DNA of 63,999 nt, filler included, from Perkinsus olseni (lineage: Eukaryota): assembly GCA_013115125.1 (NCBI GenBank). It is 31 parts of 31 records of this genome, joined end to end, with 100 filler letters (N's around TTAATTAATTAA, not from the genome) between each part and the next. Parts side by side here need not be neighbours in the genome. Positions count along the whole stretch, not along the records: positions 27,426 to 29,410 come from JABANN010001679.1; 30 more parts are not named here. One strand, given 5' to 3'. Numbering within the stretch: position 1 is the stretch's first letter; the number at the start of each line of letters is the position of its first letter. Below are positions 25,523-53,647 of this stretch, in pieces. The position numbers were made by a program, and so were the translations under genes. The notes below the pieces were generated by a model. The model was not told where the DNA came from. It saw only the letters and a program-made list of their open reading frames with translations, and made no database searches.

Positions 25523-27435
25523 AATACATTCTTGGTTCACTATTTCTCATCTTGCCTGTAATTGTTCGGGTTCAGCGTTGAGTTCATTAATTAGCACCCC
25601 GCCTTAATTATTGTTGGCCATGAATGTAATTAGGCCGCTGCGTAGTGCCGAGGTAGTCAACTTGACAACCTCTGCTCCTCTTTTCGGCTTGACAGTGAGA
25701 CAGCCTTGCAACCTCAGACGTGGAGTATCCATGTTCGGGGTTCAGCGTGGATTTTCCGCCTCTCACCTCAACCTTCCACCACTCAACGGTTGGGTAGGCA
25801 AAACCCCTGGTGGCAGTCGTAGACTTGATGAGCACGACAAAAGTAAAGCCAGCAAAGCGACGGGAAGGCCCAGTCCCTTCTACCCTTTTCCGACTAAATC
25901 GACACCTGGTTCGACAGTTCTAGGTAGCCTATCTCGGTAATATGATCCTCAATTGATTGCACCATGAGTTCGAGTTCGACCGTCATATACAAGAAACTAC
26001 AGGTAGTCCAGAAACTCTCAAATCTCGTAAAACATGAGCATTGTGATCATTTGTAAAGGGTATTGAGCCATGCATCAGCAGGACGTCCTCCGCCGTACCT
26101 AGTAGACGGTTCTCCTGAATAACTCTTCATCAATAGTCCCACCTGCTCCAGCCATGTGCAAGCCCTGTTTTCGACACGATGCCAAACTTCTTGTGATGTT
26201 GGATTCGCAGCCGATGCCACCTGACGAATCCATAAGCAGAGCCTTACCTTTCTGAGGAAGCACCACTCACCTGTACTTCACGTTATCCTTAGGTAAGTCC
26301 CTCACGCGCCGACGGAAGCGTCTCCGTCCACCACTCTTAGCGTAGTATTCCAGAGCATGGCCAGCCTTGAGCACTCGAGCCATATGAGTGAGGCCTACTA
26401 CTGCTGGTGCTACGTGGGCCAACGTCTGGGCTACTTGTTCCTAACAAAGCACCCATGGAACCTTCCGCTGCGCATCGGCATGCACCTGTGAGAACCGCGA
26501 CACTGCTATGGGATTGCGGTCTTTGAGTTGACCGAGTTGAGGGTTCAAGGGGTACCTAGCGCACACTGACAGAGTGCATCAGCAGGCGCCTCACATGATG
26601 GGCATGGCCAGCCTTGACTGAAGTAAATTAGCCACTACACTGCACCTGGCGAAGAAGGTATCTATCAACACTAGTATTTGCAGGAGACAGCCGGTACCGA
26701 GTCATCTACTACGCAATCGGGCAGGGTCGATCTTCTTCGGGAGTCCGGCCATGTAATGACACCTTCCATTAAGGAGGCCTGGGTGCACACTAACGCAACA
26801 GCAAATAACTAGAGAACTCTCCAATGGTGTATTTCATGCTTGTTCATGTCTCTCTTCAGCTTTCCATGCAAACAGGGTGGACCACCAGGACTCAGTCGAG
26901 TCTTGGTCGCTGAATGGCTGCTCGTCGCTGATAGCATGGGCCCAGCTTTGAGTAAGGCGAACCATACTGTCATCACCAGACGCGTATAAGAAGTGGAGAA
27001 CCTGACCAGCCTCAATCGGCACCGTAACAGGCCCACCAGGGTCACCACGACTTTACATCATCCTGTGTGAGCCCCCCGGACTTCTTGATGCTGTCCAAGA
27101 CACCTCCAGTCGGCTGTAGTGCAGCAATGAGTTCCTTCGCGTTCAGTGACTCCGCCTGAGCATCTAGCCATGCCGCCCCTCTGCAACCCTCTCCTTACCG
27201 TGGGGTTCCCTGCCTTGCCGGCCACAGCAGCCCACCACTGCCGTGCAGCCTTGTCGGTGCGCGCTTTAACAATACTTTCCTCCAGCTGGGGTATCTTTCC
27301 CTTCAGCACCCCTATAGATTGGCGCNNNNNNNNNNNNNNNNNNNNNNNNNNNNNNNNNNNNNNNNNNNNTTAATTAATTAANNNNNNNNNNNNNNNNNNN
27401 NNNNNNNNNNNNNNNNNNNNNNNNNTCCAGAAATG

Positions 27436-27533
27436 CTGCACCACGAATTCGTCAAGCCATGCTGTGTCTCTAGTTCGTCAAGTGCAGCTGCACCACAATT
27501 TCGTCAAATCATACTGCAGTCCAAATTCGCCGA
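27436..27533. repeat. Four degenerate ~25-bp repeats (CTGCAxxxxxATTCGTCAA) downstream of the SL RNA gene
   Basis: TTCGTCAA/TTCGCCGA recurs at ~25-nt spacing. Confidence 0.65.
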
Positions 27534-27536
27534 CTG

Positions 27537-27621
27537 AAAAAGGGTCGTCACCGACATTCACCTTTCGGCTGCAGCCTAGCGAGCGGACCTGATATTTACC
27601 TTGAGCCAAGATGGCTACGGT
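27537..27621 (-). ncRNA. Spliced-leader (SL) RNA gene, Perkinsus type
   Basis: Exon ACCGTAGCCATCTTGGCTCAAG at 27621-27600, then GT donor (27599-27598), a ~60-nt GC-rich intron part with a GAAA-capped hairpin, and TTTTT at 27541-27537. Confidence 0.95.
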
Positions 27622-27789
27622 GACCTATAGGGCTCCAGGTTGTGGTCGTGCCAGTAGCATAAAATTCCGTTGCGCCACGAAATTCCAAGAAACGAAAAAA
27701 GTCGACCATCCCGACCTATTACTTCTGCCCAATCCATCCATTCTCTTCCGTCCCCTTCTTAACGATATGCTCCAGCCTTCCTTGTAATT

Positions 27790-28480
27790 GACACTGTCCA
27801 ACCCAACCGGGCGCAGGTTCAATTCCAGTTGGAGACATTCAGGCCATCTTCCATGCGAACGACCCAGGTTCAATCCCTGCGGACCACACTCTCCACACTG
27901 GAGTTCAATTCTCACCGACTCCATTCCATGCTTAGGTAACCGGACCACCCCGGATCGATCCCTGGTCGCTGCGCATTCCCCACTCGGGTTCAATTATCGG
28001 AGACTTCATTCCATTCTGGGCCATTCGAGAGCACGCAGGTTCAATCCCACCGGACTGCTCACCTTTATGGAAGTTGAACTCCCACCGACTTCATTCTACG
28101 CTGCGGTATCCGAAACACCCGAGTTCAATCCTCACTAGCTGCGCATTCCCCACTCATGTTCAATTACCACCCACTTCACTCCGCGCTGGCTACCCGAGAA
28201 CACGTGGGTTCGATCCCACCCAACTGCTCACCTTTAGGGAAGTTCAACTCCCACCAACTCCATCCCATTCTGCGGCAGTCGAAGGACCCGAGTTCGATCC
28301 CTGCTATCCGCGCATCACACACTCGAGTTCAATTCTCACCGACCTCACTCTACCTTGGCCTATCCGACAACACCACGGTTCAATCCCACCGGACTGTCCA
28401 ACCCCACTCGAGTTCGGTTCCCGCCGACTTTATTCCGCGCTGCGGTGACCGAAGCACCCCAGTTCAACCCCCGCGGTCTC
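27790..28480 (+). repeat. Degenerate tandem array: ~85-bp unit with ~170-bp higher-order period
   Basis: GTTCRA-like cores at 27817, 27868, 27903, 27953, 27988, 28039, 28073, 28123, 28158, 28208, 28242, 28292, 28327, 28378, 28412 and 28462 (spacings alternate 50-51 and 34-35 nt). Confidence 0.9.
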
Positions 28481-29510
28481 CATTTCCTACAAATCACTGA
28501 CCATTTCCTCGCGATTTCTCCGAATTTACCCGCGCACTCTCCAATTTGCTCACATCACCGGAATCCTCAGCTCACGCGCTCTCCAGCCACACCGCCAATT
28601 TTACTCTCGCGCACCTCCAATCCATCCAATTCTCTCCGACAAGCAGCATCACTCTCAGCTCGGAACAATTCACCAGCCACGGGAGCCCTCTCTCGAATTC
28701 CAGCAAGGTAATCGCGAACGTGATTGGCGCGGTAAAATGTGGTAGCTCGCGCCCAAGGGTCTTGTGCGCGCCTCGGCCAGCAGAGCGCGCCGTAAATCGA
28801 TTGCGCTATAACGTGCTCGACAAGATAGGCTTGCCGTTGGCTCACGTGTTAGTCCACGCTTGTCTAGAAAAAAAACGTCCACGTCTCTTGTCTACGCTTG
28901 TCTACACCTGTCTGGCGTTTTCCTCTGTGAGCTAGCTCTCGAGCGATTAACTGGTAGTGAGCCACGCTTCGCCCCCCCCACTTTCTCTCATCGGTTCGAT
29001 CTTCCTTCGTTGCGTCGCTCTTCACCCTCTGACCGCTCAGGATCCCCTTCTCGCCCCTCCGATCCGAGGCATGGTAACCAGAAGGCTACGAGTCGACGTA
29101 TCAAGCCTGCCTGTCCACGAGTCGGAGGGCGACCGAAGTCTCCCGTTCTGCACGAATTTCAACTTGAAGCCTTCAAGGCTAACCGGCGCCTTGCCCTCTG
29201 CGGCTCTCTCTCACGTTCTGGCCCCTAGCGGCCTTCCTCTGCCCTCCGTGGCTTCGATAGTCCCTAGTCGACTTATTACTCGCCGACCAGCCCTCTGCGG
29301 CTGTGGTACCACTCCGTGGTCAGTTTAAGATACCTGGAGTTCCCATGACGGAATGTACACTGATTAAGACTTGTTCCTGCTCAACAAGTTTGTTGCCGAG
29401 TTAATCAATTNNNNNNNNNNNNNNNNNNNNNNNNNNNNNNNNNNNNNNNNNNNNTTAATTAATTAANNNNNNNNNNNNNNNNNNNNNNNNNNNNNNNNNN
29501 NNNNNNNNNN

Positions 29511-29581
29511 CCCAGACCCAGGATCGAACTGAGGACCTCCAGATCTTCAGTCTGGCGCTCTCCCAACTGAGCTATCTGGGC
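29511..29581 (-). tRNA. tRNA-Phe(GAA), last ~2 nt cut by the contig end
   Basis: GCCCAGA-TAGCTCAGTTGGGAGAGC-CCAGA CT GAA GA TCTGG-...-TTCGATC cloverleaf. Confidence 0.95.
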
Positions 29582-29783: not shown

Positions 29784-29856
29784 TGCGGCCTGCGAGGATC
29801 GAACTCGCGACCTTAGGATTATGAGACCTACGCGCTACCTACTGCGCCAAGGCCGC
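29784..29856 (-). tRNA. tRNA-Met(CAT), elongator type
   Basis: GCGGCCT/AGGCCGC acceptor stem, CT CAT AA loop, TTCGATC T-loop, G1-C72. Confidence 0.95.
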
Positions 29857-53565: not shown

Positions 53566-53647
53566 GACAGCGTGTCCGAGTGGTTAAGGAGGTGGACTCG
53601 AAATCCACTAGGCTCTGCCTGCGCAGGTTCGAATCCTGCCGCTGTCG
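53566..53647 (+). tRNA. tRNA-Ser(CGA)
   Basis: GACAGCG/CGCTGTC acceptor stem, GTGGA CT CGA AA TCCAC, long variable arm, TTCGAAT. Confidence 0.97.

Follow-up and report, generated by a model that had tools for sequence, protein, structure and literature searches.

The window, a 63,999-nucleotide stretch of Perkinsus olseni DNA, is a chain of contigs of about 2 kb joined by N spacers, and only positions 27426-29410 (contig C750) are contiguous with the locus described here. Its features are as follows.

27426..27536, no strand: downstream flank, common to the SL copy on contig C3068 (sequence comparison)
27537..27621, minus strand: Perkinsus L-type SL RNA gene (exon, GT donor, intron and T5; probe matches)
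27654..27675, minus strand: proximal upstream element (-54 to -33, core TTTTATGCTAC), found in 7/7 SL genes with their own 5′ flank
27816..28470, plus strand: B-box-like array of 16 motifs, opposite in orientation to the SL gene (motif scan, autocorrelation, TRF)
28461..28470, plus strand: terminal motif of the array (local alignment with single motifs of two other SL cassette types)
28490..28702, no strand: pyrimidine-rich block, common to SL cassettes C883, C991, C894 and C2093 (sequence comparison)
28703..29410, no strand: non-cassette, lower-copy flank (depth and loose ends in sequencing runs)

The first-pass annotation had reported an intact minus-strand SL RNA gene ending in T5, and this is borne out by the gene's parts and by probe matches. 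A 22-nt exon (27621-27600) is followed by a GT donor (27599-27598), an intron and a T5 run (27541-27537), for a total of 85 nt. In by-eye comparisons with Table 1 of PMC3101222, the Perkinsus L-type exon probe matched the exon exactly, and 18 of 20 letters of the P. marinus L-type intron probe were equal to the intron. The same source gives P. marinus SL transcripts as 80-83 nt long, with 3′ ends that map in a T tract. The L-type features present at our locus are the exon and its GT donor, the conserved intron, a length of about 80-85 nt and the T-tract end. Folding of the gene into two stems was no better than that of shuffled sequences (z -0.85), the 21-nt S-type SL had no exact match in the genome assembly, and a scan of metagenomes for the SL gene returned no matches. 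Just downstream of the gene, at 27447-27530, lie four TTCGTCAA-like motifs spaced by about 26 bp. Other contigs of the window carry an SL exon relic at a contig start (46097-46117 (+)), which begins with T and has no GT donor, and tRNA-Phe, tRNA-Met and tRNA-Ser genes (29509-29581, 29784-29856 (-) and 53566-53647 (+)) that are unlinked to the locus.

Upstream of the SL gene, 16 motifs start between 27816 and 28461. Eleven match RGTTCRAYYC exactly, four have one mismatch and one has two; GTTCRANNC, the B-box consensus, is fully matched by 11/16 and missed by 5/16. Exact matches averaged 0.016, with a maximum of 1, in 500 dinucleotide shuffles, and the minus strand of the array contains none. 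All 15 spacings alternate between 50-51 and 34-35 nt, just as had been described for this array, and the proposed 85-bp unit and ~170-bp higher-order repeat are both recovered as autocorrelation peaks (0.453 at lag 85 and 0.469 at lag 170, with 0.271 expected). TRF assigned a period of 169. Four subunit types, of 34, 50, 35 and 51 nt, thus build 85-bp units and a 170-bp higher-order repeat. Two further details of the original description stand in part. The array was said to begin about 170 bp upstream of the gene; its first full motif is located 195 bp from +1, although a remnant with two mismatches is present at about -174. A 17-bp lattice had also been proposed. At lag 17, identity (0.23) is lower than expected, and a direct 17-bp tandem repeat was dropped for want of any signal at that lag, but a decayed motif copy occurs at +16/+18 and A/T dinucleotides retain a 17-bp period when the motifs are masked. 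The decayed copy suggests an older unit of about 17 bp.

The terminal motif aligns with the motif at -93 of the C883 SL gene, which is broken but gives a strong alignment, and with the motif at -89 of the C2678 SL gene, which is intact but gives a weak one. Since each of these two cassettes has a single motif near -90 that corresponds in alignment to the array's last one, the array would represent an expansion at the position that holds one box in other cassettes.

In the assembly, matches to the array were found on at least three contigs (C750, C2093 and C894), all of which carry an SL-cassette block. C2093 and C894 stop before the position of the SL gene, and both keep the distal block; the C2093 array is one 170-bp repeat shorter than that of C750. 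It had been asked whether the array is a generic satellite or a transposon terminus, and we set this aside, as the matches listed are confined to the SL-cassette family and include no dispersed copies away from SL loci. To the comparison of contigs we added four public sequencing runs, aligned along C750 as contigs. Contigs covering the gene, its array and the pyrimidine-rich block were mostly several-fold deeper than those over the flank beyond 28840. Depth in run X7 was about 380-1550 over the gene, array and block vs 75-167 in the flank, and in run X6 the deepest pieces reached 87-188 and the flank 11.7, with a depth of 32 for the piece whose sequence is identical to the array described here. 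These values, which are read depths and not copy numbers, hint that the array-type unit is multi-copy. Joints that skip 169 and 178 letters in two runs reveal variation in array length, which, as read from these sequences, changes in 170-bp steps. Most copies of the pyrimidine-rich block run on from 28702 into a palindrome-bearing spacer, and loose ends at 28702 in runs X2, X7 and X6 lead into C894-like sequence; the C750 contig therefore appears to hold a copy from the edge of the SL repeat. In a record from run X10 and at a joint in X7, sequence upstream of the gene is joined to the beginning of the array with a 51-letter insertion between them, and an X6 record connects the SL gene to 27739, while no record of the four runs spans the gene and the array together. 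An outward walk from C894 ended in a dispersed repeat.

The cassettes carry additional structured elements. Upstream in SL and U6 cassettes C883, C991, C894, C1465, C2678, C383 and C786 is a palindrome whose GGTGACTGGTGACAC arms enclose an AT-rich centre, and a second inverted repeat, with CCCTGGACAATGTT arms, is located downstream of the SL and U6 genes of the same set. At C190:40200-40390, the GGTGACTGGTGACAC motif forms a 22-bp tandem repeat of at least nine exact copies. On the far side of the locus, the 28703-29410 flank overlaps contig C900 by 73 nt, and this is followed by a 451-aa ORF (L095:136-1491, -) with Ala/Lys/Asp repeats. The ORF has only a weak Pfam match (HC2), below cut-off, and may be a retroelement gag.

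SL genes with an SL-type intron or promoter were found elsewhere on C883, C991, C2678 (a tandem unit of 1939 bp), C1465 (two copies) and C3145 (cut by the contig end), and promoterless SL fragments on C3068 and C2869. The element at -54 to -33 is common to 7/7 SL genes that have their own 5′ flank and is likely to be the core promoter of these genes. It also occurs at nine places in the genome that have no SL gene, and these places have neither an antisense B box nor an Rfam match. Co-occurrence of the array with SL genes at a fixed distance did not survive this comparison: the six other SL genes hold 0-2 B boxes within 350 bp, one of them broken, and distances vary. For the seven genes, the nearest intact upstream box is at -89, -195, -306, -409, -583 or -1116, or there is none. 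The C2678 gene has boxes at -89, -276, -1349 and -1579; its two proximal boxes have no A box, and one belongs to a U6-type repeat. The C991 gene has a box at -306. At C883, the broken box at -93 is accompanied by true divergent tRNA-Glu and tRNA-Gly genes, the nearest intact box being at -1116, and the C1465 SL has one true tRNA gene upstream, whereas C3145 has no upstream B box. Wherever strict upstream matches were found, they were antisense; sense matches occur at 0/7 genes. C1465 (L052) and C3145 represent a divergent SL type, with a different intron and an exon centre of CACT rather than the CATCT type, and the two C1465 copies lie in tandem between tRNA-Glu and tRNA-Gly genes. On C2719 (L131, L146), three antisense B boxes lie upstream of an SL exon relic that has no GT donor. 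About 470 bp past the last of these boxes is another, detached copy of the SL proximal element, and a T6 run follows about 45 nt beyond the expected start.

A related arrangement was found at U6. Three of the four U6 genes (C383, C786 and C999; L090, L086 and L087) have their own antisense B-box repeat of 3-4 copies with a period of 71-74 nt, in which boxes are positioned at -124, -195, -266 to -269 and -340, the -124 box being fixed in all three; the fourth has no B-box array upstream. The two families of cassettes are connected in other ways. The upstream spacer of the C2678 SL gene is 81% identical to a U6 upstream spacer over 991 nt, and the palindrome of the SL spacers is also found beside U6 genes. 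BLAST detected no similarity between the SL array and the U6 units, and the identity they share is concentrated around the B-box motif. With a cassette remnant on C2699, in which the motif is duplicated with a 30-nt period, the B box has been amplified with three periods: 85/170 (SL), 71-74 (U6) and 30 (C2699). Downstream of the C786 U6 gene are two decayed tRNA-like elements with both A and B boxes.

Other small-RNA genes of the same genome are organized differently. Among seven U1, U2, U4 and U5 genes checked, none had a strict upstream box, and no array was found at the 6/6 7SL genes examined of the eight found, one of which has a single match. Matches to 5S were partial only. By eye, 8/8 U1/U2/U4/U5 genes have a CAACT 3′ flank within 15 nt and no T4 run, and 7/8 have an upstream element at about -57 to -62. 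An element of CATACCAC type is common to U1, U2, U4, U5 and 7SL, at about -57 for U2, U4 and U5 (contigs C1858, C3068, C1015, C2917, C2548, C2993 and C759). Together with CAACT it likely constitutes a Perkinsus snRNA promoter element and 3′ box. Because 7SL shares the upstream element with U2, U4 and U5, the element is no marker of polymerase.

The conservation of the B box was compared with that of the rest of the unit, and B-box columns proved to be better kept. Across seven repeat copies (five whole, two partial), omitting terminal units that run into non-array DNA, the majority fraction was 0.919 in B-box columns vs 0.799 in others (Mann-Whitney p 0.0013), and between the C383 and C999 U6 repeats 21/21 B-box positions were equal vs 150/179 others (p 0.03); both p values overstate the case, given the relatedness of the copies and the fact that conservation was what drew attention to the motif. 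Invariant columns numbered 18/28 in the B box vs 50/142 elsewhere. The B-box mask ranked 3 among 170 cyclic shifts, and most of the top shifts fall on or beside motifs again. All four runs, and C2093 as well, carry an A58 change at 28297.

Traces of tRNA beyond the B box are slight in the array. An A box was found upstream of 0/16 motifs, and in 27622-28720 two stricter patterns gave none and the loosest gave one, at 27800. In contrast, an A box is retained by 4/4 distal decayed tRNA-like elements of the C2678 and U6 cassettes, which score z 3.5-7.2. Against a set of 41 genomic tRNAs, incomplete at 17 anticodon types, tRNA likeness was below z 2 for 15/16 array units, with a maximum of 2.6. 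T-stem pairing (31/64) exceeded a composition null but was equalled by a slid control. We rejected the array units as tRNA genes or pseudogenes, as they have no Rfam or ARAGORN match at default thresholds and no tRNA homology beyond the motif; a single ARAGORN prediction inside the array under relaxed settings, which yield many spurious genes, was treated as noise. The 34-35-nt spacing was likewise rejected as the D-loop/T-loop pair of one tRNA, no unit having tRNA homology. Lacking an A box or a tRNA fold, the units appear to act as a DNA element and not as RNA.

Genome-wide, B-box-like fragments number 2051 vs 386 in the control, and there are 26 motif pairs 47-77 nt apart vs 4. SL-array or U6 contigs hold 13 of the 26, and one more lies next to an SL relic; of the 12 that remain, 11 are isolated pairs. 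C715, which is neither an SL nor a U6 locus, has three motifs in 300 bp. The genome encodes a homologue of the TFIIIC subunit Tau95 (E 2.9e-9). A search for the B-box-binding (B-block) subunit gave a weak match (E 0.008), and the control for this search was positive in 7/14 prokaryotes.

How should the array be interpreted? The account we prefer, tentatively and at somewhat less than an even chance, is that the array derives from tRNA, is maintained by selection and serves TFIIIC as a landing platform; its role would then be architectural or supporting, and not that of the core promoter. More generally, the B-box runs at SL and most U6 genes probably serve as TFIIIC landing sites rather than core promoters. 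This is argued by the better conservation of B-box columns in the SL array as well as in the U6 repeats, by amplification of the motif with different periods, and by the concentration of half of the close motif pairs in SL-array and U6 contigs, with upstream SL boxes all antisense. It is also argued by the absence of an A box from the array when the decayed tRNAs of related cassettes retain theirs, and by the encoded Tau95 homologue, taken with a report that B-box clusters of fission yeast are bound without Pol III (PMC7474672). Against it stand the five motifs that are off consensus, the widespread A58 change, the broken aligned motif of C883, the genome-wide abundance of B-box-like fragments and the non-SL, non-U6 cluster on C715. 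In the sequence of events we envisage, an ancestral cassette would have carried one antisense B box about 90 bp upstream of SL. Unequal crossing-over could then have multiplied it, the early units being ~17 bp and 85 bp long and the present steps 170 bp. TFIIIC would bind the intact boxes and hold the locus open or tether it with tRNA and U6 clusters, the array would insulate or support the SL gene, and initiation would be set by the -54 to -33 element.

Neutral amplification is a serious rival, even if on balance we consider it unlikely. On this view, a decayed tRNA would have left its T-arm fragment in the SL repeat, unequal crossing-over would have made further copies of it, and the resulting spacer minisatellite would carry the B box as a functionless relic. 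Copy number does vary freely, as the 16 motifs of C750, the shorter C2093 array and the joints of 169 and 178 letters attest; decaying tRNA genes occur in the same orientation in related cassettes; and several SL and U6 genes are missing the array. The 5-fold enrichment of dispersed B-box fragments means that raw material for such amplification is common. What neutral drift accounts for less readily is that B-box columns are better conserved after amplification in SL and U6 repeats alike, that the motif is present in repeats of three different periods, and that runs of at least three boxes are nearly confined to SL/U6 cassettes. A role in nucleosome phasing, which the first-pass annotation had offered as one option, is very improbable. 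A 170-bp repeat that varies in such steps could place nucleosomes beside the SL promoter, with the motif incidental, and Perkinsus chromatin is described as nucleosomal (PMC5029490). The array nonetheless has no 10.4-bp A/T dinucleotide signal (power 1.1, or 3.2 with motifs masked), the U6 repeat has a period of 71-74 nt, and conservation is centred on the B box.

The identity of the polymerase bears on a further alternative. SL RNA needs a methylguanosine-type cap, which is usually tied to Pol II. In 3′ end and cassette, SL genes nevertheless resemble U6: U6 genes end in T6-7, and SL genes in T4-T5 in four of six cases, with only T2 in the other two, while none has a CAACT 3′ flank or an snRNA-type upstream element. 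These observations could fit a trypanosomatid-style extragenic promoter or enhancer, in which Pol III reads the SL gene and divergent B boxes recruit TFIIIC, as for U6. In such a scheme, SL RNA would be transcribed from U6-interchangeable cassettes, and the A-box-less array, variable in number, would be a tunable upstream TFIIIC enhancer. We regard both the promoter model and this enhancer version of it as doubtful. In their favor are the 991-nt spacer of C2678, the T4-T5 ends, the lack of elements of the U1/U2/U4/U5 type, the mapping of P. marinus SL 3′ ends in a T tract (PMC3101222), and the presence of a divergent B box or true tRNA gene at most 1.7 kb upstream of 6/7 SL genes. However, the A box is missing and the distance is not fixed, the nearest intact box ranging from -89 to -583 and reaching -1116 in C883, whereas in trypanosomatids the A box is held about 104 bp away (PMC4950102). 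One U6 and all six examined 7SL genes are without an array, and two of six SL genes end in T2 only. A T-tract end is also given for kinetoplastid SL (PMC3101222), and the trypanosome SL promoter is listed among those of Pol I/II-dependent genes (PMC10781861). A required promoter is further opposed by the 0-2 proximal boxes of six SL genes, when all seven share the separate -54 to -33 element. The proposal of an extragenic Pol III/TFIIIC enhancer is supported in part, by the layout shared with U6, and weakened by the missing A box and the 7SL genes; with no fixed co-occurrence, the trypanosomatid model serves as an analogy and does not include this locus as a member.

Comparison with known systems delimits what is new. 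The trypanosomatid snRNA and 7SL promoters, as presented in PMC4950102, are alike in that B boxes precede a small-RNA gene and point the other way, an arrangement seen here at U6 as well. The P. olseni array has the divergent upstream B box but fails two of their defining features, the A box and the fixed distance, and it reaches 16 copies. It is also absent from 7SL, U1, U2, U4, U5 and one U6, and the gene it accompanies, SL, is Pol II-dependent in trypanosomes (PMC10781861). Clusters of B boxes outside tRNA genes offer a second comparison. The IR-L and IR-R elements of S. pombe have five B boxes each, and clusters there are bound by TFIIIC without Pol III (PMC7474672); extra-TFIIIC clusters of C. 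elegans lie on CeRep3, at sites that keep A boxes (PMC6950938). Both resemble our array in placing several B boxes in a repeat outside tRNA genes, and in P. olseni the B box is also better conserved than its surroundings, among copies that are not independent. Unlike those clusters, the array lies inside small-RNA gene repeats in strict tandem phase, and its TFIIIC binding and boundary activity are putative. The P. marinus L-type SL genes are alike in the 22-nt exon, the similar intron, the 80-85 nt length and the T-tract end, and their account, in the portion of PMC3101222 covered, includes no B-box array, U6-shared spacer or promoter element. In the literature searched, which took in few subscription papers, there was no report of B-box arrays or of a polymerase assignment for Perkinsus SL genes, and for perkinsid or dinoflagellate SL genes neither a promoter nor a polymerase is named in the papers found. 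The long array and the link to U6 therefore appear to be new, a real, SL-cassette-specific variant of known B-box arrangements with a putative function.

Every trans-spliced Perkinsus mRNA needs SL RNA, and this locus family offers two candidate elements, one at -54 to -33 and the other the array of B boxes, along with a built-in comparison in the U6, 7SL and U1-U5 genes of the same genome. If TFIIIC binds the array, B-box-only clusters would be extended to alveolates; if Pol III reads the SL gene, this would be a departure from the Pol II arrangement of trypanosomes; and if neither holds, the array would be an ordinary spacer minisatellite. SL genes near U4 and U2 are reported in P. marinus for the S type (PMC3101222). 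In P. olseni, the SL copy at C3068:79173-80095 has U4 and U5 genes after it in the opposite orientation, and the end of that contig resembles the U1 flank on C368 (42 nt, 90%), a resemblance that suggests an SL-U4-U5-U1 cluster.
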